Assembly (NCBI GenBank): GCA_022897995.1
Contig: GCA_022897995.1_4763.1
DNA length: 64,000 nt
Strand: one strand, 5' to 3'
Origin: a phage
Shown here: one piece after another, positions 2,270 through 50,500 of the stretch
How the letters are laid out: each line of letters opens with the position of its first letter
Numbering within the stretch: position 1 is the first letter of the stretch
The notes under the pieces: model-generated
Database searches by the model: none
What the model was told of the DNA's origin: nothing
What the model saw: the letters and a program-made list of their open reading frames with translations, nothing else
Position numbers and translations under genes: made by a program

Positions 2270-2315
2270 TTGACATAAAAGGGAGATTCTCTATAATGGG
2301 AGTCTCCCTTTTCTT
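2270..2315 (+). promoter_or_regulatory. sigma70-like promoter overlapping a terminator hairpin
   Basis: TTGACA 2270-2275, 16 nt spacer, TATAAT 2292-2297; GGGAGA/TCTCCC stem encloses the -10 and is followed by a T-run, directly after the gene 39 stop. Confidence 0.55.
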
Positions 2316-2331
2316 TTATGAGGATTAAACA

Positions 2332-2631
2332 ATGAGCAAAAAGAATAATATGATGATGAGTATGGCAAAGTTTATGGAAGCGGACCTGATCAAAAATACA
2401 GTACAACATGAACGCCAGCGAGAAGCCGCAGTGATTGCAGAACAAGGTTTTCAGGTTATCCGCAATCCACCTAAAGACACGGTTAAATCGAAATACAGAG
2501 ACGATCTGAAAGACCATGAAGTACGGGAACTGGTTAATGATCTGCGTGACATTGCCATCAAATATCATGGTTATCAGTGCTTACGAGAACTGATTGCATC
2601 GCGAGTAATGGATGCCCTGAAAAAAGATTAA
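2332..2631 (+). CDS. hypothetical protein
   Basis: 99 aa ORF immediately downstream of the promoter at 2270. Confidence 0.5.
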   Translation: MSKKNNMMMSMAKFMEADLIKNTVQHERQREAAVIAEQGFQVIRNPPKDTVKSKYRDDLKDHEVRELVNDLRDIAIKYHGYQCLRELIASRVMDALKKD

Positions 2632-2637
2632 AATCTG

Positions 2638-2680
2638 TTGACACCGGATCGGGGATATATCATAATGTCCCCATCGAAAA
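2638..2680 (+). promoter_or_regulatory. sigma70-like promoter with inverted repeat over the -10
   Basis: TTGACA 2638-2643, 17 nt spacer, CATAAT 2661-2666; GGGGA...TCCCC stem; conserved CCCATCGAAA leader. Confidence 0.55.
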
Positions 2681-2696
2681 CAAAAGGTTGACTTAT

Positions 2697-2891
2697 ATGA
2701 AACCGTTTAAGAATGAAGAAACTCAAAAATTTTGTGAAAAAATTGCAGAAATCTACTTGACAGGGAATAAGGAAAAAGCTAATATTATGTTCAAAGAGTC
2801 AGTTTCCATGATGAAAGTAGCACGCTGGGAACTGATCGCAATGCAAGACCAAATTCGTTATCTAGTAACAAAGGAGAATCAAAATGCGTAA
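2697..2891 (+). CDS. hypothetical protein
   Basis: ATG 2697 downstream of the promoter at 2638; the tracked frame 2577..2891 would start inside the previous gene. Confidence 0.4.
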   Translation: MKPFKNEETQKFCEKIAEIYLTGNKEKANIMFKESVSMMKVARWELIAMQDQIRYLVTKENQNA

Positions 2892-3078
2892 CCATTACAT
2901 CGAACTGACAAGCCGTAGAGTTTCCGATCTGAAAGGCGTAATTGCTTACTATGAAGAAGTCCTGAAAAACGAAATTGCCGAGTGGGAACGTAAAGAATAC
3001 AGCAAGTGCTTAGAGAAAAGCCGCGCTGAACTGGTTGACGCAGAAGCCCATTTGCAATGGGTGATTGAAAATGTATAA
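2884..3078 (+). CDS. hypothetical protein
   Basis: SD AAGGAGAATCAAA then ATG; start overlaps the stop of the previous ORF. Confidence 0.45.
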   Translation: MRNHYIELTSRRVSDLKGVIAYYEEVLKNEIAEWERKEYSKCLEKSRAELVDAEAHLQWVIENV

Positions 3079-3088
3079 GGAGTAGAAA

Positions 3089-3346
3089 ATGAATAGAAGT
3101 TTTGATTTTATTTTCGCCAAGTGTCATCGAGAAAAGAAATCGATGGACCTGTTTATGGAGTGTTTGAGGTATGAATATGCGCATCTTCGTAAACACAAAA
3201 TTGATCCGCAAGTTTCCTACGAAAACATCAAGAAATATGCGAAAGAAGTGATTGACAACGATTGCACCGTGACATATAATGCGTTTATTGATTTATGGGC
3301 GTGGGATGTAATCTACGCAGAGATGGACAAAGAAGATTTTAATTAA
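3089..3346 (+). CDS. hypothetical protein
   Basis: 85 aa ORF with SD GGAG upstream. Confidence 0.45.
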   Translation: MNRSFDFIFAKCHREKKSMDLFMECLRYEYAHLRKHKIDPQVSYENIKKYAKEVIDNDCTVTYNAFIDLWAWDVIYAEMDKEDFN

Positions 3347-3360
3347 GTGAGGATTATATT

Positions 3361-5469
3361 ATGAAAATGCATATTGATAATGAAGAAGTATTTGGCAGTG
3401 ACTTGAGCGGTGCGGTTGATTTTTCACTGAAAGCAAGTAGCAAGGCTTTTATGGTGCTTTCTAAGAACACTTATCAATATTGTGAGCGTGCTTGCGTCCG
3501 TGAGTATTCGTGCAATGCTACCGACACTCACAAAGAAGCCGGAACCTTAGATCGTCCGTTTGATATTCATTTACCGACTGCAATCGAACCGTATTTTTCT
3601 GTGCGTGATTATGGTACTGGTATTCCGTCTAAGAAAGAATTAGAACAACTGTTTACGGTTTACTTTGAATCAACCAAAGACCAGACTAATGATTATATCG
3701 GATCTTTTGGTTTGGGTGCGAAGTCTGCTTATAGCTATACCGACACCTTTACAATCGTAAACTACTACAATGGTCGCGCTTATGGCTTTACTGCATTTGT
3801 GCAAAACTCTATGCCGAAAATGGTGCAGATTTTCGACGAACCGACCTATGAAGACAATGGTCTGAAAATCACTATTCCGGTGAAAGAAAAAGACATTCAG
3901 ACATGGCATCGAGAAGCACAATTTGTACTGCGTCATTTTGGGGAACACAAACCTAATATCAATGCCATCGAAATTAATTATTTCCCTAGCTTTGATAATT
4001 ATTATGTGTGTAATGGACGTGATAACGATTCCTATGTGGTATATGCAATCATGGGTAAGATCCAGTATCCGATCCCGTATGAATATGTTCGCGGAACATG
4101 GTTAGAAGCTGTAAACCACCAGCACCAGACCATTTACATTAATTTTGAGTTGGGTGATCTGGACCTTATGCCATCGCGTGAAGAAGTTCACTTGTCAATT
4201 GAGACTAAAGCGAACATCGAAAAACGCATTGCAGAAATCAATGAAATGATGTTGGAAAAGGTTAAAGAGAAGATCGCCAACATTAAAACAGAGCGTAAAC
4301 TTGCTCAATTTATGAGCGAGTATTCATCGACGCAACGCAATATTATTAGCAAGATGGGTAAGATCGGACAATGGGACGATCCGGTAGCAATCTATAATAA
4401 GTTTGTGAATGCGGGTAAATATTCGCCTAATGACGTAGAAGGTCAGGTGTATACTCTGTATCGTACTCGTCACACAATCAGTAAATTGCGACCTGCTTTC
4501 GTTAGCAGTCAATACAACATTACGCATTTTGTATGGATGCATAAAGAAGATATTACGTGTCTTATTGATGATACCGATAAACCGAAACTGCGTGCACTGA
4601 CTCTTAACGGCATGGTCCAGGAATATGGAATCAATAAAAAAGTACTGGTGTTCCGTCAGAACAACGAAAAACATATGGAGACTTTCGAGTACATCAAACA
4701 GTATTATGATGATTCTGAAATGACCGTGATTAAGGTATCAGAGGCCGATGATCTGCGTGCTAAAGCAGTTAAGCCGGAGAAGACCGAGCGTACACAACGT
4801 GAAGCTACTCCCAAGCTGCCTAACGTGTATATCATGGAAAAGATTGGTGACAGTTGGCATAAAACCAGCCATCACATGAAAGCGGCAGAGATTCGCGAGT
4901 TATCAGGCTTGCACATGTTCCGCGTAGGTGATGCATTCGAAAGCCGTAGCCGTCAATCGATCTATAATGAAAATACATTACATACGGCGCTTGACTACTT
5001 CGGGGTAACAAAGTATATTATTACTCGAAACGAGACACAAAAATATCTCGTTGACGAACAATTGGAATGTGCGCTAGAATTTGTTCGCGGTAAGCTGGCT
5101 GGTCTGGCTAAGAAGGTTAAGACCAATCATCTGGGGTATGGCGAATATCTGGGTGTGATCACTATGTTGTTTCATGACGATGAACTAGAACGCTGTGTTC
5201 CAGAATTTATTGACAGACTGTACGGTCGTCATTATAATAAAGAGGTTTCCAAGTTACTCCTTCATACTCGTTGGATTATGGACGAAGAAACTAAAAAGAT
5301 TTGTGATGAAAAATTCACGGCAGCAAACGAACGAATTAAAGCAGTTTGTGCGAAGTTTAAAGAGAATAGCCCGTTACTGTATGATATTGTAGATAACTGG
5401 TATCGTATTCTGCATAACGACAAACGCGCACAAGACTTTATGAAACTGGTTAAGAATGTTAAATTTTAA
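3361..5469 (+). CDS. rIIA: rIIA protein (membrane-associated, N-terminal GHKL ATPase-like domain)
   Basis: 702 aa (T4 rIIA about 725 aa); motifs DYGTGIP and GSFGLGAKSAY; sits between 39 and rIIB as in T-even phages. Confidence 0.8.
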   Translation: MKMHIDNEEVFGSDLSGAVDFSLKASSKAFMVLSKNTYQYCERACVREYSCNATDTHKEAGTLDRPFDIHLPTAIEPYFSVRDYGTGIPSKKELEQLFTVYFESTKDQTNDYIGSFGLGAKSAYSYTDTFTIVNYYNGRAYGFTAFVQNSMPKMVQIFDEPTYEDNGLKITIPVKEKDIQTWHREAQFVLRHFGEHKPNINAIEINYFPSFDNYYVCNGRDNDSYVVYAIMGKIQYPIPYEYVRGTWLEAVNHQHQTIYINFELGDLDLMPSREEVHLSIETKANIEKRIAEINEMMLEKVKEKIANIKTERKLAQFMSEYSSTQRNIISKMGKIGQWDDPVAIYNKFVNAGKYSPNDVEGQVYTLYRTRHTISKLRPAFVSSQYNITHFVWMHKEDITCLIDDTDKPKLRALTLNGMVQEYGINKKVLVFRQNNEKHMETFEYIKQYYDDSEMTVIKVSEADDLRAKAVKPEKTERTQREATPKLPNVYIMEKIGDSWHKTSHHMKAAEIRELSGLHMFRVGDAFESRSRQSIYNENTLHTALDYFGVTKYIITRNETQKYLVDEQLECALEFVRGKLAGLAKKVKTNHLGYGEYLGVITMLFHDDELERCVPEFIDRLYGRHYNKEVSKLLLHTRWIMDEETKKICDEKFTAANERIKAVCAKFKENSPLLYDIVDNWYRILHNDKRAQDFMKLVKNVKF

Positions 5470-5481
5470 GAGGTGATATTA

Positions 5482-5613
5482 TGACTAAACTGACCGCTAT
5501 CCAGAAAGAAACCATCCGTAAACAATACGCTCGCGGCTTGACTAAAGGCGAACTGGCACGAATCTATAATGTGTCAGACCGCACAATCCGCAAGGTTGTA
5601 GAAGCAAAATAAT
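5482..5613 (+). CDS. small helix-turn-helix protein
   Basis: 43 aa ORF with SD GAGGTGATATT; HTH-like segment LTKGELARIYNVSDRTIRK; too short for the ORF track. Confidence 0.35.
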
Positions 5614-5650
5614 TCTGGTATAATGATGTGAATCGGGCGGCGATAGTCGC
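5597..5650 (+). promoter_or_regulatory. candidate promoter plus hairpin upstream of rIIB
   Basis: TTGTAG 5597-5602, 17 nt spacer, TATAAT 5620-5625; GGGCGgcgatagtCGCCC hairpin 5635-5652. Confidence 0.35.
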
Positions 5651-5665
5651 CCAACTAATAGAGGA

Positions 5666-6667: not shown

Positions 6668-6681
6668 CAGAGGAATTAATT

Positions 6682-7008
6682 ATGGTTGATATGAAAGTTA
6701 CTTGCGAAAGTGCACATGTTGAAGTTGAAAGTAGCCAATATTCATTGCGTCCGTCCGGTCGCGTTACTGTGACTATGGATGATGTTGATTTGGTTAATAA
6801 TGTTAGTGTTGAAGATATCGTTAATGAGTATGATCATAGCGAACTGCTAGACGCAATTCCTGAACATGTTGTGATCCAGCACGTAGTAAGCAATAATGAT
6901 CCATCGACTTTCATTAAAGAATACGGCGCTGATGAAATGCTCGATGAAATTGGCGAAAAGATTGTTATTGCATGGCTTGAAAACAACGGTTATACTGTAG
7001 AACAATAA
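6682..7008 (+). CDS. hypothetical acidic protein
   Basis: 108 aa ORF following rIIB. Confidence 0.45.
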   Translation: MVDMKVTCESAHVEVESSQYSLRPSGRVTVTMDDVDLVNNVSVEDIVNEYDHSELLDAIPEHVVIQHVVSNNDPSTFIKEYGADEMLDEIGEKIVIAWLENNGYTVEQ

Positions 7009-7016
7009 TCAACATA

Positions 7017-7042
7017 GGCCGCTTTGCGCGGCCTTTCTTAGA
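7017..7042 (+). terminator. rho-independent terminator
   Basis: GGCCGC-tttgc-GCGGCC hairpin followed by TTTCTT. Confidence 0.5.
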
Positions 7043-7053
7043 GGGAATACATT

Positions 7054-7347: not shown

Positions 7348-7349
7348 TA

Positions 7350-9284: not shown

Positions 9285-9287
9285 ATT

Positions 9288-9683: not shown

Positions 9684-9692
9684 CTGATTATT

Positions 9693-9722
9693 AAGCCGAT
9701 CCGTGTGGTCGGCTTTTTTATT
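9693..9722 (+). terminator. rho-independent terminator
   Basis: AGCCGAtccgtgtgGTCGGCT hairpin followed by TTTTTTATTTT. Confidence 0.6.
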
Positions 9723-9733
9723 TTAAAAAGTTG

Positions 9734-9790
9734 TTGACTTCCATAATCCATCATTGCATAATACACACCCATACCAAACGAAAGGAGAAT
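9734..9790 (+). promoter_or_regulatory. sigma70-like promoter with conserved leader
   Basis: TTGACT 9734-9739, 17 nt spacer, CATAAT 9757-9762; leader ACCCATACCAAACGAAAGGAGAATCA. Confidence 0.55.
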
Positions 9791-9795
9791 CAAAG

Positions 9796-10068
9796 ATGAG
9801 CAACGAAAACAGCAAAGTGTTAGCAATTGCCGATAAAGTAGGTTACTGGAAATGTTGGGATGATATGGAGAAATTAGGCGGTCGATATCTCGATAACTTA
9901 GAGTTGCATTATTGCCAAGCGCGTAATGCAGAAGTTGCGGGAGTAGCAATTGAAGATATTCCGTCTAAGGTCTTCGGATTCTCTAAAGATGATACTTTAG
10001 AATATGTTTTCAAGGCTGTTATGGATCAAGCATGGGAAGACGCAGAGACACGCGCTCTTGATTGGTGA
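9796..10068 (+). CDS. hypothetical protein
   Basis: ATG 9796 preceded by AAGGAGAATCAAAG. Confidence 0.5.
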   Translation: MSNENSKVLAIADKVGYWKCWDDMEKLGGRYLDNLELHYCQARNAEVAGVAIEDIPSKVFGFSKDDTLEYVFKAVMDQAWEDAETRALDW

Positions 10069-27263: not shown

Positions 27264-27944
27264 ATGATCAGAAACCGTCTTCCTCCAGATCCAGATATGC
27301 GAATTAATGCTAAATCTGTGTATATGTTATATTGCATGATGAAAGCTCATATGAACGGGCGTTATGATTGCGTAAAATATAATTGGAGGATGCGGTTATC
27401 TGATGCCGCATTCAATAAACGCAGAGATAAGTATTATTTCGCAAAATTAGCGGAAAAGTACAATCTAAGAGAATTATACTTCCTATTCCTAAGCAATCTG
27501 GTAGCTAATACCGATGCATGGGTAGGTGAAATCACTGATGTTGACGCATACGGCTTTTATATGGAATACATAGGAAAGATAACCGATGCAGCAACAAGAT
27601 TTGACGATGACGTTAAAAGTCTGGTATACTTCTCAGAGAAACGCGGGGTTACTCTTAAAGAGCTAATTACATACAATCCCGCAACCGAAACTAGCGGTAT
27701 ATTTAAACTACTGCAAAATCGGATTATATCGTTTGAGTCGTTTATGTTGTTAGATAGCTTTCTAAATATAATCGACGAACACGACAAGGTAGCCAAAGAC
27801 TTGATTTGGCAAACTTATAGTGTTAAAATGAAGGCGTACAAGAAACTACTTGTTATTGACGCCGCAAAAGCAAGAGCATTATTTGTTAAAGTAGTTAAAG
27901 AGTGTAAAGAAATATCTCAATTAAAAGCCGAAACAAATAGTTGA
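27264..27944 (+). CDS. 59: helicase loader gp59
   Basis: 226 aa; near-colinear with T4 gp59 as recalled (KSVYxLY, KYNW, ISFExFxLLDSFLNIID). Confidence 0.9.
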   Translation: MIRNRLPPDPDMRINAKSVYMLYCMMKAHMNGRYDCVKYNWRMRLSDAAFNKRRDKYYFAKLAEKYNLRELYFLFLSNLVANTDAWVGEITDVDAYGFYMEYIGKITDAATRFDDDVKSLVYFSEKRGVTLKELITYNPATETSGIFKLLQNRIISFESFMLLDSFLNIIDEHDKVAKDLIWQTYSVKMKAYKKLLVIDAAKARALFVKVVKECKEISQLKAETNS

Positions 27945-27968
27945 CAAGTAAACTTAAATCTGTATAAT
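27940..27968 (+). promoter_or_regulatory. sigma70-like promoter upstream of gene 32
   Basis: TTGACA 27940-27945, 17 nt spacer, TATAAT 27963-27968. Confidence 0.5.
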
Positions 27969-28004
27969 AGTCTAGTAAATTAATCAAAAGAAGGAATAGT
28001 GAAT

Positions 28005-28946
28005 ATGTTTAAACGCCAAGATTCTTCCAAACTGCAAGCTCAACTGGCCGCACTGAAAGGTGGCAACGGTTTCTCCAAAGAAGATCCGAAAGAGTGGAAG
28101 ATTAAGACTGATGCAGCAGGTAACGGTGAAGCCCTGATTCGCTTCCTGCCGTCTAAGACAGAAGACGGTCTGCCGATTGTGAAACTGGTAAACCATTCCT
28201 TCAAAGTTAATGGAAAATGGTATTGGGAAAACTGCTCCAGCACCCACGGTGATTTTGATTCTTGCCCTGTGTGCAAATATATTAACGAAAAAGACCTGTA
28301 CAATACCGATAAAACAGAATGGCAACTGATTAAGCGTAAAGCGTCTTACTACGCAAACATTCTGGTACTGAAAGATCCTCAAGCACCAGAAAATGAAGGT
28401 AAGGTATTCAAATTCCGCTTCGGTCAGAAAATTTATGATAAGATCGTTGCGATGGTGAACGTGAATACCGACATGGGCGAAGTTCCGGTAGATGTAACTT
28501 GTGTGTTCTCTGGCGCTAACTTCCTCCTGAAAGCTAAGAAGGTTGATAAACACCAGAACTATGATGATTCTCGTTTCATGCAGCAATCACAGCTTCCGAA
28601 AATTGAAGACGAAGCATATCAGAAATATCTGATGGAAAACATGGTTGATCTGGGTGAAATTGTAGCACCGAGCCAGTTTAAACCGTTTGATGAACTGGAA
28701 ACCAAATTTAAGAAAACTATGGGCGTGTCTATGGTAGCGGGTGCTGCGGCTTCCAGTGCTGCGGCAGCGATTAACAGCCAGCTTGACGATTTTGATGCTC
28801 AGATGAATGCATTCGATGCTGGTATTACCGCAGCTAGCACGGCGGCAGATTCTTCCGCTGATGACCTGATGGCATCGCTGGATCTGGGTGGCGGTACTTC
28901 CTCCGCTTCTGATCTGGATGACCTGGATTCTCTGTTAGCGATGTAA
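28005..28946 (+). CDS. 32: single-stranded DNA-binding protein gp32
   Basis: MFKRQ...[13 protein letters not shown]...LIRFLPSK... nearly colinear with T4 gp32 as recalled; acidic C-terminal tail; start placed at ATG 28005. Confidence 0.95.
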
Positions 28947-28956
28947 TGAATTTTAC

Positions 28957-28983
28957 AGCCTCCCTTCGGGGAGGCTTTTTTAT
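28957..28983 (+). terminator. rho-independent terminator after gene 32
   Basis: AGCCTCCCcttcGGGGAGGCT hairpin followed by TTTTTTATT. Confidence 0.65.
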
Positions 28984-29008
28984 TGCCTAAAAATTTATGA
29001 AAAAGGTG

Positions 29009-29036
29009 TTGACATGTTGGCGAGGTAATGTATAAT
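29009..29036 (+). promoter_or_regulatory. sigma70-like promoter
   Basis: TTGACA 29009-29014, 16 nt spacer, TATAAT 29031-29036; leader contains ATCGAAAC. Confidence 0.5.
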
Positions 29037-29065
29037 GAACTAATCGAAACAACGGAGGATTAACA

Positions 29066-29395
29066 ATGTTTTTGAATGCTACCCTTTCCCAGAAAAGTGA
29101 TAAAATCGAACTTCTGTATGTCATTGCTGATGTAGACGTACAACGAAGAAATATAGATTTAAAAATTCACAAATATTATACTATGAGCGAATATCACGAA
29201 ATCGAGATCCCACATAGTGTGTATCCCGCATTATTGTTAGGAAAAGGAAATCTAAGTGAATATTCTTTGAAAGTCATCAAAGATTCTAAATCAATGCTTG
29301 CTCATATGGAAAAAGATTTTCTTGATGAAGTTTCCGCGCTAGTTATTAAACTGAAAGAAGAAACAGCACCGCTTTTCATGGAACAAAAAGGTTGA
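29066..29395 (+). CDS. hypothetical protein
   Basis: 109 aa ORF with SD GGAGGATTAACA. Confidence 0.45.
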   Translation: MFLNATLSQKSDKIELLYVIADVDVQRRNIDLKIHKYYTMSEYHEIEIPHSVYPALLLGKGNLSEYSLKVIKDSKSMLAHMEKDFLDEVSALVIKLKEETAPLFMEQKG

Positions 29396-29419
29396 CTCCG
29401 AACACAGATGATGTATAAT
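29392..29419 (+). promoter_or_regulatory. sigma70-like promoter
   Basis: TTGACT 29392-29397, 16 nt spacer, TATAAT 29414-29419. Confidence 0.5.
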
Positions 29420-29450
29420 ACAAACATCAAAACAAAGAGAGGATTATATT

Positions 29451-29780
29451 ATGTGGACAGTAGAACAAATCGTAGATGAAACAGTAAGTATTATCGCATG
29501 TGGCACTATTGAAGAATGCCTTAAAGCCGCTAACCGTGAATGTATTACGGTTTATGAAGCCCGTCGCGGTGATGGTACTGTGTTAACAAGCGACTATCGA
29601 TATGAACCAAAAATGATTACCTTTCGTTTTTGGGAAAATGGTGTTAATGTTGGGGTATCTCACTTAAAACGTTTTCGTGATTATTCTGACCGTTATTTCA
29701 TCACACCGGATAACGGTCAAGAATTTAAGACAGCAATCACCGAAGAAAATGTAAACGAAAACTTCTTTAAACTGATTTGA
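29451..29780 (+). CDS. hypothetical protein
   Basis: 109 aa ORF with SD GAGAGGATTATATT. Confidence 0.45.
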   Translation: MWTVEQIVDETVSIIACGTIEECLKAANRECITVYEARRGDGTVLTSDYRYEPKMITFRFWENGVNVGVSHLKRFRDYSDRYFITPDNGQEFKTAITEENVNENFFKLI

Positions 29781-34237: not shown

Positions 34238-34247
34238 AAAATAAGTG

Positions 34248-34300
34248 TTGACGCGGGGAGAAATCCCCGCTATAATTCAACCATCAAAAACAAGTGAGGA
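34248..34300 (+). promoter_or_regulatory. sigma70-like promoter with inverted repeat in the spacer
   Basis: TTGACG 34248-34253, spacer GCGGGGAGAAATCCCCGC, TATAAT 34271-34276. Confidence 0.55.
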
Positions 34301-34307
34301 TTTTATT

Positions 34308-34475
34308 ATGACCAAATTAAAATGTGTTGCTGTAGATTTTGAGCTAGCTGATAGCTTTGTTGTCGGTGATGAATATGATGCTCGACATGATGGGGCTTGC
34401 TACTACGTTGAGGATGAATACGGCGTAGAATGGGCTATTCTTCCTGATGATAAATGCTTTGAGGTTGTCGAATAA
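34308..34475 (+). CDS. hypothetical small acidic protein
   Basis: ATG 34308 after GTGAGGATTTTATT; 55 aa. Confidence 0.4.
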   Translation: MTKLKCVAVDFELADSFVVGDEYDARHDGACYYVEDEYGVEWAILPDDKCFEVVE

Positions 34476-36464: not shown

Positions 36465-36476
36465 TGTTTGTTCAAA

Positions 36477-36503
36477 GTCGCCCATAGTGGCGACTTTTTT
36501 GTT
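36477..36503 (+). terminator. rho-independent terminator
   Basis: GTCGCCcatagtGGCGAC hairpin followed by TTTTTTGTT. Confidence 0.55.
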
Positions 36504-36511
36504 ATTGGGTG

Positions 36512-36560
36512 TTGACAATCGGATCTTGCCATAGCATAATACCCCCATCGAAACGGAGGA
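36512..36560 (+). promoter_or_regulatory. sigma70-like promoter with conserved leader
   Basis: TTGACA 36512-36517, 17 nt spacer, CATAAT 36535-36540; leader ACCCCCATCGAAACGGAGG. Confidence 0.55.
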
Positions 36561-36564
36561 ACAT

Positions 36565-36783
36565 ATGGAAACAGAAGAACAAGTCATTGCATATTTTCAT
36601 CGTAAAAAGATGAAACTTAGAATCGAAAAACAGTACATCAATCACTATATTGACCGAGTCCACTTAACAAGTACACCTTACCTATTCCGGTTGATAAACC
36701 CTCGAAAACGGTGGGATAAGTTGGATAGAAACACAAAAATAATTGATAAGCTCACCCAATGGTGGAATGAATACAACAAGTAA
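36565..36783 (+). CDS. hypothetical protein
   Basis: 72 aa ORF downstream of the promoter cassette. Confidence 0.45.
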   Translation: METEEQVIAYFHRKKMKLRIEKQYINHYIDRVHLTSTPYLFRLINPRKRWDKLDRNTKIIDKLTQWWNEYNK

Positions 36784-44454: not shown

Positions 44455-44923
44455 TAATGAAGGGGCGAAAGCCCCTAAACCTAAAAAATTGTCAAAGAAA
44501 GAGCAACGCCAGATCCTGAAAATGAAATACGGTGGACGTTGTGCCTATTGTGGCGAGGAACTAGGGGATCGCTGGCACGCAGACCACATCAAACCAGTAT
44601 TGCGACGCTCAAAAGTAGTCTATGATGAAAATGGACGAATTGCCCGTAATGATGATGGATCGTGGAAGTATAAGGTTGTAGGAATGCATAAACCGGAGCA
44701 CGATATACTTGATAACATGAATCCGGCTTGTGTGCAATGCAATCTTTACAAAAGCTGTATGGGCTTAGAATACTGGCGTAAGTGTATACGCGAGAACTTC
44801 CAGAAGTACATTCAACGTAACATGGGATTACGTGCGGCTAAACGCTTTGGCTTGCTTTCAATCCACGATCAACCAGTAGAATTTTATTTCGAAAAGTACG
44901 AGCGCGAGCATCAAGAAAAATAA
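44447..44923 (+). CDS. HNH endonuclease (possible free-standing homing endonuclease)
   Basis: CAYCG...HADHIKP...N...CVQCNLYK His-Me finger motif; a GGGGCGAAAGCCCC hairpin lies in the first codons, so the true start may be the internal ATG near 44522. Confidence 0.55.
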   Translation: MCDNEGAKAPKPKKLSKKEQRQILKMKYGGRCAYCGEELGDRWHADHIKPVLRRSKVVYDENGRIARNDDGSWKYKVVGMHKPEHDILDNMNPACVQCNLYKSCMGLEYWRKCIRENFQKYIQRNMGLRAAKRFGLLSIHDQPVEFYFEKYEREHQEK

Positions 44924-44937
44924 TTCAAAAAAAGTTG

Positions 44938-44996
44938 TTGACAGGGGATCACCGATCCCCTATACTACACACATACCGAAACGAACTAGGAGAATC
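44938..44996 (+). promoter_or_regulatory. sigma70-like promoter with stem-loop in the spacer
   Basis: TTGACA 44938-44943, spacer GGGGATCACCGATCCCC (perfect palindrome), TATACT 44961-44966; leader CACATACCGAAACGAACTAGGAGAATCA. Confidence 0.65.
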
Positions 44997-45000
44997 AATT

Positions 45001-45180
45001 ATGAACTTCAACGAAATCATCGCTAAAATCCGCTACAACGAAGAAACCATTGAACTGATGCAAAACAATATCACCAATGGTTATATGATTGCAGCGTCAC
45101 AAGAAATCATTGATTTGACAGTAGCAGAAAATGCTCAGTTGAAACATCAACTTTCAACGGCTGGCGTGATTGTTATGTAA
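45001..45180 (+). CDS. hypothetical protein
   Basis: ATG 45001 directly after the conserved leader and SD. Confidence 0.45.
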   Translation: MNFNEIIAKIRYNEETIELMQNNITNGYMIAASQEIIDLTVAENAQLKHQLSTAGVIVM

Positions 45181-45197: not shown

Positions 45198-45530
45198 ATG
45201 GCAAAAGTTCAGGTAGGCGAGGTCTTCAAAATGGAAGACCATACCGTAGAAGAGATGAAAGGCGCAGTATTGAAAGTAATTAATTCAATGTGGCGTAGTG
45301 TTCTTTACATCAACTTTATCGACGGTGATGTGTGGTGGGCTAGTGATAACGTTAAATGGGGCGTTAAATGGGACGAAGAAGGCAATATGGTCATCAAGTT
45401 CTACAAAGGTCATACTCACTGGTTAGGAACAGAGGATGTTGTAGAAGTTCTGGCGGTTGATGTTATGCCAGGAGAGATCGAAAGTCTTAGCGGAACCGCA
45501 AAAGAAGCATTGACACGCCATTTCGTGTGA
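45198..45530 (+). CDS. hypothetical protein
   Basis: 110 aa ORF with SD AGAGAGGTGACT. Confidence 0.45.
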   Translation: MAKVQVGEVFKMEDHTVEEMKGAVLKVINSMWRSVLYINFIDGDVWWASDNVKWGVKWDEEGNMVIKFYKGHTHWLGTEDVVEVLAVDVMPGEIESLSGTAKEALTRHFV

Positions 45531-45587
45531 TGTAATATAACAATCATCGGGAGGGGCAATACTCTCCCACAAATTGAGGATAATATT

Positions 45588-45896
45588 ATGGAACGTACCA
45601 ATTTGTTTGTAACCGAACCTTTCGTTGAAGGCAACAAGAACCTTGCTAATACGGTTATTCTTTACGAAGATTGGATCTTTTACATTGACGAGAATTTAGA
45701 CGTATATTGTCGTCCAACTCCAAATGACTCATTCTATATCGAAGAAAACGATACACATAATCATTGGTATAACGGAAACGACGAAACAGACCTTGCTATT
45801 GTTCTCGAATCAGGTGTAGAATCGGAACATGCAGATGAAGTAGCGGATAAATTTGTACAATACGCATATAAAGATAAAGATGAGGATGAAGAATAA
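45588..45896 (+). CDS. hypothetical acidic protein
   Basis: 102 aa ORF with SD GAGGATAATATT. Confidence 0.45.
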   Translation: MERTNLFVTEPFVEGNKNLANTVILYEDWIFYIDENLDVYCRPTPNDSFYIEENDTHNHWYNGNDETDLAIVLESGVESEHADEVADKFVQYAYKDKDEDEE

Positions 45897-45903
45897 AAAG
45901 TTG

Positions 45904-45962
45904 TTGACAGGGGATCGGTGATCCCCTATACTACACACATACCAACGAGATATAGGAGAATC
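45904..45962 (+). promoter_or_regulatory. sigma70-like promoter with stem-loop in the spacer, near-identical to the copy at 44938
   Basis: TTGACA 45904-45909, spacer GGGGATCGGTGATCCCC, TATACT 45927-45932; same leader and SD. Confidence 0.65.
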
Positions 45963-45966
45963 AAAA

Positions 45967-46134
45967 ATGTTCCAGACTAAAGCAGAATGCGAAGCATACA
46001 TTGTAGCAAACCACGGTGAAGACTACCTGAAATTCGATATCGTAGTAGCACAGAAGATCACCGGAATGGTTGCAAAATATCTGGGTGTTAAAGAAGGTTA
46101 CTATCCAAGCAACGCACCAGAAATTAACAAATAA
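45967..46134 (+). CDS. hypothetical small protein
   Basis: 55 aa ORF after TAGGAGAATCAAAA; too short for the ORF track. Confidence 0.4.
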   Translation: MFQTKAECEAYIVANHGEDYLKFDIVVAQKITGMVAKYLGVKEGYYPSNAPEINK

Positions 46135-46148
46135 TTTTATAAAAAGTG

Positions 46149-46213
46149 TTGACAGGGGAGACACCCTCCCCTATAATATACACATCGAAACGAGATACCA
46201 ATTAGGAGAATCA
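46149..46213 (+). promoter_or_regulatory. sigma70-like promoter with stem-loop in the spacer
   Basis: TTGACA 46149-46154, spacer GGGGAGACACCCTCCCC, TATAAT 46172-46177; leader ACACATCGAAACGAGA...TAGGAGAATCA. Confidence 0.65.
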
Positions 46214-46217
46214 AACA

Positions 46218-46469
46218 ATGGCTAACATCGAAACCGCAAAGAAAATCGCTAAAGACCTGAACGTTAAAGGCTTCCGTAAACTGAAATTACAGCGTGTACG
46301 CTACACCATCGGCAAACAGTGCTCTTTCATGAGCGAAGAAGTTGCTAACAGCCTCATCGATAACCTGATCGCGGCTGGCTGGGAAGTTACGGATCTGAAA
46401 ACTTGCAGCGAACTGGCTAACAAAGGTCTTTTAGATTCTGTTACTATCAAACCAATGGGGGCAGCGTGA
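46218..46469 (+). CDS. hypothetical protein
   Basis: 83 aa starting MANIET, the same first five codons as the ORF at 48105; first gene after the promoter. Confidence 0.45.
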   Translation: MANIETAKKIAKDLNVKGFRKLKLQRVRYTIGKQCSFMSEEVANSLIDNLIAAGWEVTDLKTCSELANKGLLDSVTIKPMGAA

Positions 46470-47511: not shown

Positions 47512-48028
47512 CATGAACAGATTAACGCCTAAACGCCGTTACTATACCAATACTAAAAACTTTGTCATCTCTGTTTATGAGGCGTGGTTAGAAGATGGAT
47601 ATATCAACATGAACCCAGATTATCAGCGTCCTTTAGTATGGGACACCGAAAACAAACGTATGTTTATCGAAAACCTGATTAATGATTTTCCGGTTGGTGC
47701 TATCGCAATGGCTAAGATTGATGATGGCTCTCGCTATGAGATCGAAATCGTGGACGGTAAACAGCGTTTAAACGCAATATTCTCTTTCATGAAGGATGAG
47801 TTTAGCATTGCTGGTAATGATGATTCTATGCTGTATTACAGCGATTTTACGCCAGCAGAAAAGCGACGTTTCCGAAATCTCGGACTACCAGCGATCATGA
47901 TGGAAGAGAGCACACGAGAAGACCGATTAGAGTATTTCTACAAAACAAACTTTTTCGGTGTGCCTCAATCGGAAGAACATCGCCAGCACGTAATTGCCCT
48001 ATTGCAAGATGAGCAATTAAAAAAATAA
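47477..48028 (+). CDS. DUF262 (ParB/GmrS-N-like) domain protein
   Basis: DYQRPLVW and IVDGKQRLNAI motifs as in DUF262 (DYQR...W, DGQQR); 183 aa stand-alone; overlaps the upstream ORF. Confidence 0.45.
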   Translation: MIYVMIHSGDYNMNRLTPKRRYYTNTKNFVISVYEAWLEDGYINMNPDYQRPLVWDTENKRMFIENLINDFPVGAIAMAKIDDGSRYEIEIVDGKQRLNAIFSFMKDEFSIAGNDDSMLYYSDFTPAEKRRFRNLGLPAIMMEESTREDRLEYFYKTNFFGVPQSEEHRQHVIALLQDEQLKK

Positions 48029-48039
48029 CTAAAAAGTTG

Positions 48040-48100
48040 TTGACATAACAGAGGGTGTATATCATAATACACCCATACCGAAACGAACTACTAAGGAGTA
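48040..48100 (+). promoter_or_regulatory. sigma70-like promoter with inverted repeat over the -10
   Basis: TTGACA 48040-48045, 17 nt spacer, CATAAT 48063-48068; GGGTGTATatcataatACACCC stem; leader ATACCGAAACGAACTACTAAGGAGTATCA. Confidence 0.6.
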
Positions 48101-48104
48101 TCAA

Positions 48105-48317
48105 ATGGCTAACATCGAAATCATCATTACCGACGTAACTTATGACCGCATCAACGAAATCGGTACTGCATTACTGGAAGATGGAACAACTCGTACCATC
48201 AACTACGCAGAATACGTTGAAATGCGCGGTTGGATTAAACGAGTAGGAAAATATATCCTGATTGAAAAAGACTATTCAGGATACACCTTAGAGCAATTGC
48301 TTGATGGTGCATTATAA
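48105..48317 (+). CDS. hypothetical protein
   Basis: 70 aa starting MANIE, the same first five codons as the ORF at 46218. Confidence 0.45.
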   Translation: MANIEIIITDVTYDRINEIGTALLEDGTTRTINYAEYVEMRGWIKRVGKYILIEKDYSGYTLEQLLDGAL

Positions 48318-48324
48318 TAAAAAG

Positions 48325-48352
48325 GGGGCGTTAAGCCCCTTTTTCATAAATA
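48325..48352 (+). terminator. rho-independent terminator
   Basis: AAAGGGGGCgttaaGCCCCTTTTTC hairpin with T-run. Confidence 0.6.
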
Positions 48353-48385
48353 TAGGTTTATAGGTTATCAACTAGAGGATATAAA

Positions 48386-50437
48386 ATGTTTAACTTAGAA
48401 ATCGACGATCTAATGATTGAATCTTTCGAGAAATGGCTGTTGACGGAAGAGGAAGAAAACTTTGGCAGTATTGCTCCGGTACAGTGCTTAAAGCCTAAGC
48501 AGAATCCTAAACAGCTTTTTGCAGTACAGACACGCGATAAAGATGTGATTGTCCGTCTTTGCAACTTCACCAACAAAACACCTAAAATTGTTCGTATGGG
48601 TGACAAGACCGCACATGTTGTACTGTGCGAAATGAACAAAAGCGGTCGTATTGTACAGCTTAAAAATGGTCTAGGCGATAACCCGATTGCAGTTATGGCA
48701 AGTGCTTTTGATGTGGTTATGGAAACAGCCCGTAAAGCGCAATTAGACGCTGTTATGTTCCGTTTTAACGTATCCCGCATGAAAGGTAAGACCGAACTGG
48801 TTAAGCGCGTTATAGAGCGTTTGGTGCGTCGTACACCGAAGTTCGAAGTATTCCAGCAGGAAGTAATGACCAGCAAAAAGATCGCTTTGGTTGTTGTCAA
48901 GCGTCGCGGGATGGCGATTGATAAGATTAAAGGGATTAAACTTGATGATTCCCTGTTCACTAAAGTAGAAAGTGATTTAGGTGATCGCTGGGTATCTAAG
49001 GCTACTGGCGAATCTCTGACTAAAGATGAAGCGTATGCGGCTAGCCTTGCATCAGAAGAAGAACGAAACGCGGAAGCGGAACAACGTGTAGCGGCTAAAT
49101 CTCGTTTGACTAAAGAAGAAATGCTGAAAACTCAAGCGACCTATAACAGCGACTATGTGAATCATCCAGAAAAAATTAATCTTAAACCGGAAGAAGATAT
49201 CACCGAAGCCGAACCTAAGAAACAGTTTAATACTCTGATTGATCGTCAAGCCTTAGAACGTTCAACCGCTCGTTCTCTGAATGACTGGACAAGTGATATT
49301 ATCACTCGCTATGGTTTCATGCGTACTATTTTTGAAAGCGAAGCCGATGCAAAATACGCAGTAAGCGAACTGGTAAAAGTTCAGGACCAATATGATCCGT
49401 TGTCTGCGGAAGTTATCGCAGCATCAATCAAACGCTTAAAAGAAATCATGAATGAAGAAGTGTTTGAAAACAAGATCACCGCCCTAGCAATGGATCGAGT
49501 AGACCAGTCTATGCCAGCAGATGTAAAGGCTGAAATGTTGCGTAGTCACATCACGCAGATTAAAACCGATGCCCTACGTAATGTTGCTTCCGGTATGTTT
49601 GAAGCAATTGCTAGCAACATGGGTGAAATGATGGCAGATATTGATCTTGATCTGCCGGGCGCGGAAGGTTTTGTGTTGAGCGAGTATGCCGATGCAGCAT
49701 ACATCAATATGAACAACTTCCTAACCGACCGTAAGCTGGAAGAGTTTGACGGCATCGCAGATCCAGAAGAATTGGTCAAGATGTGCGATGCACTGGATAA
49801 TGCCTTCTCTAACTATGGCGTTAAACTTGATCCGGGTACTATTCTGTATCGTGGTATGGACTTCCGGTCTCAAATGTGGGAAACTGCACGTAAGCAAAAA
49901 GCGTTTTACTTTAAAAACTATGTGAGCACTTCCCTTGCACCTAACATTTTTGGCGGCTGGAATGCAAACGTGGCTAGTGCCGTTGCTGGTGTTGATTCTA
50001 TGGCTGGATCTCGCGGTGAAGGTGGCGCTAATGTTGCTTTCTCCATTGCTGGCGCGGAAAACATCCCTGTATTGCCAGTAGGTAACAAGGCATTTGCTTA
50101 CAAAGAATGCGAGATTTTACTTCCTCGCGGCGTTGTGTTATCCTTTGATACGGTAACTCGTGCCACGGCATCGACGGATTCACAAGAAACTTATTACATT
50201 GAGGCACATATTATGAACAAAAATGAACTGGCAGCATTACAAGAATCTGGCGAGATGATCGCGGACGGTGATGCATTCATCCGTGAAGGTGTTGTTAAAC
50301 CTGCTTCTGACCTGTCTTTCTCCAGCTTTATTACCGAAGCTAAAACCGAACGTAAGAAAGCAGATAAGGCAACTCTACGTCAGCTTATCGCTGATCTGGT
50401 ATCTGTAGACGCAATGCCAGATAAATTTAAAATGTAA
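48386..50437 (+). CDS. alt: ADP-ribosyltransferase Alt
   Basis: 683 aa (T4 Alt about 682 aa); C-terminal R-S-E motifs: LYRGM, FKNYVSTSLAP, ECEILLPRG; position between 30 and 54. Confidence 0.75.
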   Translation: MFNLEIDDLMIESFEKWLLTEEEENFGSIAPVQCLKPKQNPKQLFAVQTRDKDVIVRLCNFTNKTPKIVRMGDKTAHVVLCEMNKSGRIVQLKNGLGDNPIAVMASAFDVVMETARKAQLDAVMFRFNVSRMKGKTELVKRVIERLVRRTPKFEVFQQEVMTSKKIALVVVKRRGMAIDKIKGIKLDDSLFTKVESDLGDRWVSKATGESLTKDEAYAASLASEEERNAEAEQRVAAKSRLTKEEMLKTQATYNSDYVNHPEKINLKPEEDITEAEPKKQFNTLIDRQALERSTARSLNDWTSDIITRYGFMRTIFESEADAKYAVSELVKVQDQYDPLSAEVIAASIKRLKEIMNEEVFENKITALAMDRVDQSMPADVKAEMLRSHITQIKTDALRNVASGMFEAIASNMGEMMADIDLDLPGAEGFVLSEYADAAYINMNNFLTDRKLEEFDGIADPEELVKMCDALDNAFSNYGVKLDPGTILYRGMDFRSQMWETARKQKAFYFKNYVSTSLAPNIFGGWNANVASAVAGVDSMAGSRGEGGANVAFSIAGAENIPVLPVGNKAFAYKECEILLPRGVVLSFDTVTRATASTDSQETYYIEAHIMNKNELAALQESGEMIADGDAFIREGVVKPASDLSFSSFITEAKTERKKADKATLRQLIADLVSVDAMPDKFKM

Positions 50438-50454
50438 TTTTTAAGAAATAATGG

Positions 50455-50500
50455 TTGACTCAAACGGGGACTAGTTTTATACTAGCCCCGTTTTCTGTTA
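50455..50500 (+). promoter_or_regulatory. sigma70-like promoter overlapping a hairpin with T-run
   Basis: TTGACT 50455-50460, 18 nt spacer, TATACT 50479-50484; ACGGGGACTAGT...ACTAGCCCCGT stem followed by TTTTCTGTT. Confidence 0.5.

Follow-up and report, generated by a model that had tools for sequence, protein, structure and literature searches.

Dispersed promoter and stem-loop units before small genes of an RB49-like phage, very probably PeSL cassettes

Between positions 2270 and 50500 of the window, the 64,000-nucleotide stretch of phage DNA analysed here, promoters close to the sigma70 consensus precede small ORFs and most of them are accompanied by a hairpin. The question that they raise is whether they are copies of one defined cassette or a mere set of early promoters. 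Sites matching at least 11 of the 12 consensus positions were found 26 times on the + strand and once on the − strand (mean of shuffled sequences, 1.27). These near-consensus promoters have the same orientation as the early genes, and 18 of the sites are located before ORFs in intergenic gaps of 55–231 nt (Table 1). The first-pass annotation had reported at least 16 elements, a number that the 18 intergenic cassettes bear out. All 12 hairpin-bearing copies that it listed were recovered, with a −35 hexamer TTGACA, TTGACG or TTGACT, a spacer of 16–17 nt and a −10-like hexamer, and both of the hairpin placements described, in the spacer (four copies) and looped over the −10 (eight copies), were seen. 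The cassettes at 45510, 9734, 29009, 36512, 27941 and 29392 are additional to that list.

The unit is intergenic and of about 70–100 nt. Its 5' end is the stop codon of the preceding gene, set in an A-rich tract (AAAAAGTwG); the near-consensus promoter comes next, accompanied by a G(n)...C(n) hairpin, and after these an unstructured leader rich in A and C and a strong SD that runs directly into the small ORF. The hairpin takes one of four places: within the spacer, looped around the −10, immediately 3' of the −10 or, in the form of a separate terminator, a short distance upstream. It is found within the cassette in 13 of the 18 cases, in 12 of them with at least 7 bp. Three other cassettes (9734, 29009 and 36512) lie about 20–35 nt 3' of a separate hairpin and T-run terminator, as expected for the terminator-promoter units previously proposed, and the two at 27941 and 29392 have no hairpin. 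The orthologue of promoter 27941 is annotated in the RB49 record as 'early RB49 promoter'. Cassette 2270 has gp39 (topoisomerase large subunit) on one side and a 99-aa ORFan on the other; the neighbours of cassette 50455 are alt and a second ADP-ribosyltransferase gene.

Table 1. Coordinates of the 18 intergenic cassettes of the window (PeSL is a very probable assignment)
Class	Interval	Strand	−35	−10	Hairpin	Leader and SD	ATG
PeSL, −10 in hairpin loop	2264..2334	+	2270-2275	2292-2297	2277-2312; 15 bp, then T-run, terminator-like; dG −23.2, z −3.9	SD GAGGA	2332
PeSL, −10 in hairpin loop	2632..2699	+	2638-2643	CATAAT 2661-2666	2651-2672; GGGGATAT/ATGTCCCC, one G.T pair		2697
Terminator + promoter unit	9690..9798	+	TTGACT 9734-9739	9757-9762	9693-9715 + T-run	leader ACACACCCATACCAAACGA, SD GGAGAATCA 9784	9796
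PeSL, −10 in hairpin loop	10216..10302	+	TTGACG 10238	10261-10266	10252-10273; TGGGAGTA/TACTCCCA; z −3.5	leader CACCGAAACGA, SD 10290	10300
PeSL, −10 in hairpin loop	10504..10585	+	10520	10543-10548	10533-10556	SD GAGGAAT	10583
Consensus early promoter (12/12), no hairpin, before gene 32	27930..28007	+	27941	27963-27968			28005
Terminator + promoter unit	28950..29068	+	29009	29031-29036	28957-28976 + T-run		29066
Promoter cassette without hairpin	29383..29453	+	TTGACT 29392	29414-29419		SD GAGAGGATTATATT	29451
PeSL, hairpin in spacer, after nrdA	34238..34310	+	TTGACG 34248	34271-34276	34253-34270; GCGGGGA-gaaa-TCCCCGC; z −3.3		34308
Terminator + promoter unit	36470..36567	+	36512	CATAAT 36535-36540	36474-36497 + T-run	leader ACCCCCATCGAAACGGAGG	36565
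PeSL, −10 in hairpin loop	36775..36855	+	36791	36814-36819	36806-36825; GGGGGTA/TACCCCC	SD 36842	36853
PeSL, −10 in hairpin loop	37056..37153	+	37072		37087-37106	SD GGAGTATCA 37131	37142
PeSL, hairpin in spacer	44918..45003	+	44938	44961-44966	44943-44961; AGGGGATC-acc-GATCCCCT	leader ACACACATACCGAAACGA, SD 44989	45001
PeSL, hairpin 3' of −10	45500..45590	+	45510	45533-45538	45549-45568; GGGAGGG/CTCTCCC	SD 45576	45588
PeSL, hairpin in spacer	45884..45969	+	45904	45927-45932	45909-45927; AGGGGATC-ggt-GATCCCCT	SD 45955	45967
PeSL, hairpin in spacer	46129..46220	+	46149	TATAAT 46172-46177	46154-46172; AGGGGAG-acacc-CTCCCCT; z −3.2	SD 46205	46218
PeSL, −10 in hairpin loop	48014..48107	+	48040	CATAAT 48063-48068	48053-48074; GGGTGTAT/ATACACCC; z −3.5	leader CCCATACCGAAACGA, SD GGAGTATCA 48095	48105
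PeSL, −10 in hairpin loop	50438..50518	+	TTGACT 50455	50478-50483	50462-50493; AAACGGGG(A)CTAGT/ACTAGCCCCGTTT, then TTCTGTT, terminator-like; dG −20.6, z −3.3		50516

The cassettes have far more in common than the sigma70 hexamers. Alignment of the 18 intergenic copies gave 8.8 bits of flanking information upstream (AAAAAGTwG) and 9.4 bits downstream (ACACACATaCCGAAACGA), versus 2.8 and 1.3 bits, respectively, in 13 strong intragenic promoters taken as internal control. The conservation of the leader is visible in this in-register alignment only; as a literal 9-mer it did not hold, since CCGAAACGA is exact in three copies only and its occurrences with at most one mismatch (19 versus 13.8 expected) are not above chance. 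The common SD was confirmed by the nine copies of GGAGWATCA, all on the + strand, versus 0.94 expected. In an unbiased repeat search using no promoter model, the cassettes came out as the top dispersed families (D1, D2, D5, D6 and D7), of 57–75 nt and 60–88% identity, and the similarity ends at the ATG.

The window shares 95–98% identity with the Krischvirus genomes RB49, Phi1, JSE and MIZ6, which indicates that its source is an RB49-like (Krischvirus) T4-type coliphage. It is in the coliphages RB49 and phi1 that promoter-early stem-loop (PeSL) cassettes were defined (Arbiol, Comeau, Kutateladze, Adamia and Krisch, 2010, Genome Biol Evol 2:140, PMC2839356), and the dispersed units of the window very probably belong to them. 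Every sequence feature that defines RB49/phi1-type PeSLs was looked for in the window and found: (i) an AT-rich tract with the preceding gene's stop codon inside; (ii) a near-perfect TTGACA-N17-TATAAT; (iii) a G(n)-loop-C(n) stem-loop at the published positions; (iv) a 3' end formed by SD and start codon; (v) a site 5' of ORFans; and (vi) an association with indels between relatives. Moreover, cassette 44938 is identical to RB49 PeSL210/209 at 77 of 77 positions and to PeSL211/210 at 59 of 62, and cassette 45904 to RB49 PeSL206/205 at 71 of 73. The promoter activity of PeSL206/205 was measured at about 13,000 Miller units, and the stem-loop of PeSL211/210 lowered lacZ to about the extent seen with rrnB T1, in a terminator test covering one stem-loop in a plasmid reporter (PMC2839356). 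For RB49/phi1, the literature (PMC2839356) reports activity as promoter and as terminator, and also the formation of mini-circles; we infer that the same would hold in the present isolate. A search of 50,697 phage records detected the spacer-hairpin cassette in 59 of them, at 424 places, with 5–9 copies per genome in the 30 records that were listed; to judge by organism name, the carriers among the matches listed are all phages of E. coli or Shigella that belong to the Krischvirus group. As far as described in PMC2839356, the RB49/phi1 PeSLs agree with those of the window in genus, genomic positions and anatomy, both stand before ORFans in hyperplastic regions and both flank indels between relatives. 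There is no difference in kind, and what differs in the present isolate is the set of cassette-flanked ORFs. The PeSL cassettes of this phage group were already described, so the first-pass reading is correct and not new.

The comparison drew on 11 loci from 8 relatives and covered 72 + strand gene junctions, with junctions collapsed per site. A cassette was present at 18 junctions, an indel or replacement junction at 18 and both at 11 (odds ratio 10.6, Fisher p=1.5e-4); the test is not fully independent, given that the relatives share ancestry, and cassette junctions have longer spacers, which may tolerate indels for length alone. The flanking alignments overlap by 15–95 nt inside the cassette, that is, cassette sequence is shared at the joints. 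Four sites (37059-37153, 44928-44985, 48032-48105 and 9759-9799) have a single cassette in the window and two around an ORF in a relative. Cassette 37072, for instance, is duplicated in RB49, Phi1, MIZ6 and kaaroe, where the copies flank ORF226 (alignment overlap, 95 nt), and cassette 48040 is so in relatives around ORF186. At cassette 9734, SSG23 has an insert of 232 bp bordered by 41 nt of cassette sequence, and a slot that is replaceable against relatives has cassette 29009 as its left edge and cassette 29392 as its right edge. The window is devoid of RB49 ORF226, ORF211/210, ORF207, ORF189.1 and ORF186, and also of a block of about 4.1 kb, roughly from ORF204 to ORF192 of RB49. The crossover intervals were found anywhere in the cassette (A-rich tract, leader, SD) and not at the hairpin. 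Seven of the 18 breakpoint junctions have no cassette (e.g., 46467-46482, 47513-47516, 45198-45200 and the homing-endonuclease site 34476-34837) and, as a consequence, PeSLs are not the sole route of exchange.

Folding z-scores of the hairpin copies ranged from −1.3 to −3.9, with 11 of 13 below −2.3, versus +1.1 to −1.5 for the hairpin-less promoters. Stem sequences vary between copies with complementarity retained. When 30 distinct −10-loop cassettes, taken from relatives as well as from the window, were compared, pairing was seen in 99% of cells, and the covariation in this subclass is based on one variable pair (A-U 18, G-C 10, G-U 2, A-C 0). In 40 distinct cassette hairpins the non-Watson-Crick pairs were G.T in 11 cases versus A.C in one (binomial p=0.003), an excess that points to pairing maintained in the + sense strand, with RNA as the simplest reading. 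Like rho-independent terminators, these are GC-rich stem-loops at the end of the upstream gene, and the canonical T-run is found at 2270, at 50455 and at the separate upstream hairpins 9693, 28957 and 36474. Unlike such terminators, the remaining spacer, −10-loop and downstream-of-−10 hairpins are not followed by a U-tract, the spacer and −10-loop ones running into TATACTACAC or ATCGAAAC. If these last terminate transcription, the mechanism is not the textbook one.

The absence of the U-tract from most copies would also agree with a repeat that acts as DNA, either bound by a phage or host protein (as an operator that silences the early promoters, or as a site recognised by a recombination protein) or forming a cruciform that a structure-specific nuclease cuts, with site-specific exchange instead of general homologous recombination. 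The repeat lies within the promoter (spacer or around the −10), which is a natural place for an operator, its GGGG...CCCC ends are conserved across subclasses, and Arbiol et al. speculate on a specific DNA-binding protein (PMC2839356). In addition, the loop of the spacer hairpin was found both ways round, GATCggtGATC and GATCaccGATC, suggesting that the hairpin may be extruded in DNA at least occasionally. However, we consider a DNA-level role improbable. The stems differ by subclass (GGGAGTA, GGGGGTA, GGGTGTAT, GGGGATAT, GCGGGGA, GGGGATC, GGGGAG and GGGAGGG), and the hairpins vary also in the length of the loop and in where they stand with respect to the −35, all of which is hard to reconcile with one sequence-specific protein. 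Furthermore, the G.T excess indicates pairing preserved on one strand only, crossovers spread over the whole cassette, and RB49/phi1 have no identified integrase or recombinase according to PMC2839356.

The likeness of the cassettes could also have arisen secondarily, small genes having been duplicated in tandem along with their upstream regions, and would then reflect no module conserved or exchanged independently. Some neighbouring cassette-driven ORFs are equal in length (72 aa each at 36565 and 36853; 109 aa each at 29066 and 29451), RB49 ORF205 and ORF191 are apparent paralogues, both of 168 nt, and window positions 45895-46135 align to the regions of both (85 and 91%). Nevertheless, all-against-all BLASTP of the 18 downstream ORFs gave no significant pair (best E-value 0.006, over 58 aa with 24% identity), by which this origin is largely refuted, and repeat-family similarity does not pass the ATG; we give it very little credit. 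A Pfam scan of nine cassette-driven ORFs left seven without a match, and their PHROGs are of function unknown. By their sequences, the ORFs behind the cassettes appear to be mutually unrelated ORFans, and the family would not come from gene duplication. Finally, ordinary sigma70-type early promoters, with a family consisting of consensus plus AT-rich background and incidental hairpins, would fit a loose scan (at least 9/12) barely above chance (48 versus 42.6, 67 versus 53.7 and 61 versus 57.2), the unenriched leader 9-mer and the 13 hairpin-less intragenic promoters of equal strength, but this reading is refuted, and almost certainly wrong, given the flank conservation that those controls lack, the repeat families that emerge independently of promoters, the compensatory changes in stems and the restriction of hairpins to intergenic cassettes save for at most one weak intragenic stem (40794; 7 bp, 3 G-C).

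The PeSL reading may also be set against other known systems. The PeSLs/PmSLs of T4/PST and KVP40/nt-1 (Comeau, Arbiol and Krisch, 2014, PMC4122927) are likewise composites of promoter and stem-loop tied to indels in hyperplastic regions; their promoters, as given there, are TTTACW...TAYWAT and TTGYVH...TAWWAT and their stems AGNA...TCNT and A3-4G3...C3T3-4, whereas the promoters of the window are of the RB49 type, with a near-perfect sigma70 consensus, and their stems are G(n)/C(n). Lambdoid phage morons (Hendrix et al., 2000, as presented in PMC2839356) are also lone accessory genes with their own promoter and terminator, but in the window the flanking cassettes provide the repeated homology. 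Integron gene cassettes, an analogy of Arbiol et al. (PMC2839356), share small promoter-served ORFs, excision as circles and reinsertion at a repeated site. In contrast, PeSLs have neither integrase nor attC/attI, each carries its own promoter, and they appear to be exchanged by general homologous recombination. Four of the present observations, namely the covariation of a stem pair, the excess of G.T over A.C, the two orientations of the spacer-hairpin loop and the Fisher test on junctions, were not found in the available portions of PMC2839356 and PMC4122927.

According to the model that we propose, host RNA polymerase with sigma70 would initiate at each cassette right after infection, so that each small early gene would have a strong promoter to itself, together with a translation-initiation region of standard type. 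A hairpin in the spacer or around the −10 would be outside the transcript of its own cassette and would fold only in read-through RNA from upstream, where it may serve as attenuator, terminator or 3'-end structure insulating adjacent units. Dozens of cassettes, of 60–95 nt and in direct orientation, would offer patches of homology to the phage recombination system, and exchange between two of them could delete the intervening ORFs, insert an ORF via a circular intermediate or replace one ORF by another. Throughout such exchanges, the expression signals would stay with each ORF.

Between positions 2270 and 50500 the window contains 18 cassettes, designated here by the first base of their −35 box, each directly 5' of an ORF and lying in an intergenic gap of 55–231 nt; at most other gene junctions the gap is 20 nt or less. 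Sigma70 sites matching at least 11 of the 12 positions of TTGACA-N16-18-TATAAT numbered 26 on the + strand and one on the − strand, dinucleotide shuffles giving 1.27 ± 1.17 per strand, and 8 perfect sites were found against 0.04 expected. A looser promoter scan (at least 9/12) was close to background, as was the terminator scan, and the signal is therefore confined to the stringent class. All cassette promoters are near-perfect copies of TTGACA-N17-TATAAT, with spacers of 16–17 nt and at least 10 of the 12 consensus positions in every copy, the −35 box being TTGACA in 13, TTGACT in three and TTGACG in two. Their transcripts are predicted to start 6–8 nt 3' of each −10, within ACACACAT or CCCAT. 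The cassettes are clustered at 2.2–2.7, 9.7–10.6, 36.5–37.1 and 44.9–48.1 kb, and none was found within the − strand late-gene blocks.

Coordinates in the window of the cassettes and of other features
Feature	Position	Strand	Remarks
Cassettes, hairpin in spacer	34248, 44938, 45904, 46149	+	four copies
Cassettes, −10 in or at hairpin loop	2270, 2638, 10238, 10520, 36791, 37072, 48040, 50455	+	eight copies
Cassette, hairpin 3' of −10	45510	+	hairpin 45549-45568
Cassettes after a separate hairpin and T-run terminator	9734, 29009, 36512	+	hairpins 9693-9715, 28957-28976, 36474-36497, respectively
Cassettes with no hairpin	27941, 29392	+	27941 before gene 32
Stems followed by a T-run	2277-2312, 50462-50493, 9693-9715, 28957-28976, 36474-36497		GC-rich, as in intrinsic terminators
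Opposite loop orientations	44943-44961, 45909-45927		GGGGATC-acc-GATCCCC, GGGGATC-ggt-GATCCCC
Paired GATC sites	44946-44958, 45912-45924		in the commonest spacer-hairpin stem, within the promoter spacer
DNA methyltransferase ORF	46511-47182		about 0.5 kb 3' of the cassette cluster; so annotated in RB49, Phi1, MIZ6
Overlaps of flanking alignments	37059-37153, 44928-44985, 48015/48032-48105, 9759-9799, 10506-10531, 45574-45590, 10216-10230		95, 58, 74-91, 41, 26, 17 and 15 nt, respectively
Slot between cassettes 29009 and 29392	29066-29395		109-aa ORF, no Pfam or PHROG match
Homing-endonuclease replacement in JSE	34476-34837		window slot 34475-34815, two small ORFs
Sigma70 sites (at least 11/12) inside coding sequence	3252, 5210, 6099, 11565, 25025, 25582, 26124, 26621, 27169, 31848, 39790, 40794, 50985	+	perfect: 3252, 5210, 25025, 25582
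Perfect (12/12) sigma70 site, the only one on its strand	62295-62268	−	TTGACA-16-TATAAT, TG before −10; beyond the cassette range
Apparent truncated cassette	11661-11691		before ORF 11689-11880
PeSL-like unit before rIIB	5613-5674		62-nt gap
Probable bidirectional terminators	13628-13653, 51822-51848, 60017-60034		GC-rich hairpins and T-runs at + early/− late block borders
Gp38 tail-fibre adhesin	14651-15430	−	259 aa; PF05268, E=5e-68
Divergent distal gp37	about 15838-17715		
Internal repeats of the proximal tail-fibre gene (gp34)	22842-23478	−	five copies of a 37-nt unit, 65-73% identity, spacing 108/120/252 nt

The first-pass annotation had taken these units for promoter-early stem-loops (PeSLs), and had named as refuting this the case that their shared bases were only the sigma70 consensus and AT-richness. 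That possibility was tested with an internal control, the 13 equally strong + strand promoters located inside coding sequence, with the −35 as alignment anchor in both sets. The −35 and −10 hexamers scored equally in the two sets. The 20 nt upstream carried 8.8 bits in the 18 intergenic cassettes against 2.8 bits in the intragenic promoters, and the 30 nt downstream of the −10 carried 9.4 bits (AC.C.CATc.AAA...) against 1.3, so the shared bases cannot be reduced to promoter and composition. The upstream consensus is AAAAAGTwG, directly 5' of TTGAC, and it is within this AT-rich tract that the preceding gene ends, commonly at an embedded TAA. The intragenic sites, which are probably internal early promoters, showed neither flanking conservation nor a hairpin (at most one weak stem, at 40794). 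A repeat search made without any promoter model also placed the cassettes first among dispersed families (57–75 nt, 60–88% identity), in which similarity ends at the ATG.

At the 3' end, all copies have a Shine-Dalgarno sequence, GGAGWATCA or GAGGATTATATT, 5–8 nt 5' of the ATG. Repeat units measure 57–75 nt and homology shared at the junctions extends to 95 nt, compared with conservation over about 100 bp in PeSLs of the RB49/phi1 type. GGAGWATCA occurs nine times in the window, always on the + strand and eight times inside cassettes, against 0.94 expected; the second type, GAGGATTATATTATG, is found in other copies. The leader motif described in the first-pass annotation stood only in part. 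Its literal 9-mer, CCGAAACGA, is exact in three copies only and, at up to one mismatch, showed no excess over chance (19 against 13.8), so that it was a loose description. The leader was scored instead by in-register information content, and conservation in register is real.

Two further segments were recorded outside the family count. At 11661-11691 the Shine-Dalgarno sequence and start of an ORF (aaaatagtttgTTGACGtGAGGATTATATTATG) directly follow an A-rich tract with a −35-like TTGACG, neither −10 nor hairpin being present; the segment looks like a truncated cassette, similar to the degraded PeSLs of Comeau et al. (2014; PMC4122927). In the gap before rIIB, which has no good −35, an extended −10 (TGgTATAAT) precedes a hairpin (GGGCGGCGATAGTCGCCC); this arrangement looks like a PeSL-like unit with the stem-loop downstream of the −10.

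By megablast against 50,697 phage records, positions 2000-12000 and 26000-50999 showed 95–98% identity to Krischvirus genomes, including MIZ6, RB49, Phi1, JSE, ECD7 and Brandy, none of them identical to the window. The + strand begins at the left with gene 39, rIIA, rIIB, gene 52 and a small-ORF block, and is followed by − strand late genes (holin, gp38, gp37-34). The + strand then resumes with rnh, 59, 32, frd, td, nrdA, nrdB, denA, rnlA, pseT, cd, 31 and 30, a second small-ORF block and alt, before the baseplate genes on the − strand. PeSLs were first defined in RB49 and phi1, the lineage of this window (Arbiol et al., 2010; PMC2839356). Cassette 44938 is identical to RB49 PeSL210/209 at 77 of 77 positions and to PeSL211/210 at 59 of 62, and cassette 45904 to PeSL206/205 at 71 of 73. 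The stem-loop of PeSL211/210 lowered lacZ expression about as much as rrnB T1, and the promoter of PeSL206/205 gave about 13,000 Miller units (PMC2839356). Most clones of such PeSLs had acquired mutations in the −35 or the −10, suggesting that their promoters are strong enough to be toxic (PMC2839356). Promoter activity, terminator or attenuator activity and mini-circles were shown experimentally for RB49/phi1 copies (PMC2839356); given their identity to the tested elements (71/73 and 59/62), we infer the same activities for the copies in the window.

The position of the cassettes with respect to variable genes was studied by BLASTN of the window against 11 loci, seven for the right early region (RB49, Phi1, JSE, MIZ6, Brandy, kaaroe and JK32) and four for the left (MIZ6, SSG23, kaaroe and AV108). 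Among the 72 + strand gene junctions, 18 have a cassette, 18 have an indel or replacement and 11 have both. Breakpoints were concentrated at cassettes, 11 of 18 such junctions against 7 of the 54 others (odds ratio 10.6, one-sided Fisher p=1.5e-4). Flanking alignments overlapped in the window at the cassettes, with shared homology of up to 95 nt, indicating that, for each single cassette copy in the window, the relative carries two, one on either side of an ORF. Such a footprint would be expected of homologous exchange between direct repeats. Absent with respect to RB49 are ORF226, ORF211/210, ORF207, ORF189.1 and ORF186, as well as a block some 4.1 kb long, spanning approximately ORF204 to ORF192, which ends in paralogous PeSL-plus-ORF units (ORF205-like and ORF191-like). 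The slot delimited by cassettes 29009 and 29392 is occupied in the window by a 109-aa ORF and in RB49, Phi1, kaaroe and JK32 by a 1.2–1.4 kb gene (an endonuclease according to the RB49 and Phi1 annotation), and it is empty in JSE. Seven breakpoint junctions lack a cassette, one of them the homing-endonuclease replacement in JSE, and PeSLs are thus a major but not the sole route of variation.

In the late region, the gp38 position of MIZ6, SSG23, kaaroe and AV108 holds 25–32 nt only. The DNA of this gene in the window shares 85–93% identity with the gp38 genes of certain other Krischviruses, and about 91% with genomes of coliphages apparently of T4/T2 type, judged by name and size (for example NBG2, IME340 and T4_ev240); the region would be a host-range module swap.

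Except for the two hairpin-less copies, the cassettes bear G(n)-loop-C(n) stem-loops in positions published for PeSLs, that is, between the boxes, over the −10 or −35, in the upstream AT tract or downstream of the −10 (PMC2839356). The 12 hairpin-bearing copies listed in the first-pass annotation were all correctly placed, and the terminator-promoter units that it reported are present in three copies. RNA folding gave z values of −1.3 to −3.9 for 13 hairpin copies (11 of them below −2.3) and of +1.1 to −1.5 for seven hairpin-less promoters. Stems vary between subclasses while staying complementary (GGGAGTA/TACTCCC, GGGGGTA/TACCCCC, GGGTGTAT/ATACACCC, GGGGATAT/ATGTCCCC, GCGGGGA/TCCCCGC, GGGGATC/GATCCCC, GGGGAG/CTCCCC and GGGAGGG/CTCTCCC). 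When the −10-loop cassettes of the window and of seven relatives were aligned (30 distinct sequences), 99% of the cells were paired and the sole variable stem pair was A-U in 18, G-C in 10, G-U in two and A-C in none, values unmatched by any shuffle or slid register. Internal non-Watson-Crick pairs, counted in 40 distinct hairpins when flanked by two Watson-Crick pairs on each side, were G.T in 11 cases and A.C in one, better read as a bulged A (binomial p=0.003, the copies being partly dependent). This excess indicates that pairing is maintained on the + (sense) strand. In hairpins of the spacer and −10-loop types the 5' arm lies outside the cassette's own transcript. The simplest reading is that the pairing takes place in RNA read through from upstream.

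The hairpin may instead have a role at the DNA level, as operator, recombination target or cruciform, as was raised by the original authors (PMC2839356). The variety of stem sequences, the G.T over A.C asymmetry and the scattering of crossover intervals over the entire cassette argue against this as its main function. A stronger form, that the hairpin extrudes in DNA during replication or supercoiling and initiates cassette exchange, for instance through structure-specific nuclease cleavage or template switching, being more than a passive RNA attenuator, seems to us very improbable. It is hinted at by the −10 hexamer held in the loop of one hairpin class, by two GATC sites fixed in a stem with a DNA methyltransferase gene nearby, and by the spacer-hairpin loop, which appears in both orientations in near-identical cassettes. 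The acc loop is the exact reverse complement of the ggt loop, and each is common in the set of 26 distinct copies, which suggests hairpin flip inversions via template switching or cruciform-type events. If extrusion occurred, PeSL shuffling would be a structure-targeted process and not plain homologous recombination. Termination is the weak step of the mechanism. Nine hairpins without a U-tract are followed by TATACTACAC, ATCGAAAC or ACAAATTG, and their effect on read-through, if any, differs from that of a textbook intrinsic terminator, its support being one published reporter construct (PMC2839356).

That the cassettes are a by-product of gene duplication was rejected, as the 18 downstream ORFs show no significant similarity to each other. 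The cassettes prefer hyperplastic regions and stand before ORFans; seven of the nine cassette-driven ORFs scanned had no Pfam match and belong to PHROGs of unknown function.

The spacer-hairpin cassette was found at 424 places in 59 of the 50,697 phage records, with 5–9 copies per genome among the 30 records listed, all of them, by name, E. coli or Shigella phages of this group. The exact core matched only two contigs in IMG/VR, both Krischvirus-sized, with no sign of spread beyond the genus; the Rfam scan gave no family for the cassette and the tRNA scan found nothing. Likeness to integron cassettes is an analogy only, since those depend on a tyrosine-recombinase integrase and attI/attC sites, and Arbiol et al. 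report no integrase for RB49/phi1 (PMC2839356).

In every sequence-level property of RB49/phi1-type PeSLs the cassettes agree with that family, and the PeSL interpretation is supported; the feature is already known. The covarying pair, the wobble strand asymmetry, the loop flip and the junction-level statistics are added here, refining the published model and leaving it unchanged. We take the cassettes to act at once as early promoters, as standard translation-initiation regions and as portable homology for ORF shuffling; the hairpin would insulate the units from read-through. Annotations should label such intergenic repeats as early promoter/PeSL elements instead of leaving them blank. The window is an independent natural example: with respect to RB49, individual ORFs and an approximately 4-kb block have been lost exactly between cassettes, and these losses support the published model. 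Modular phage-evolution theory requires linker sequences, for which few concrete candidates exist; PeSLs are one of them, and allow T4-type phages to gain, lose and swap small accessory genes while the transcription of their neighbours is undisturbed.
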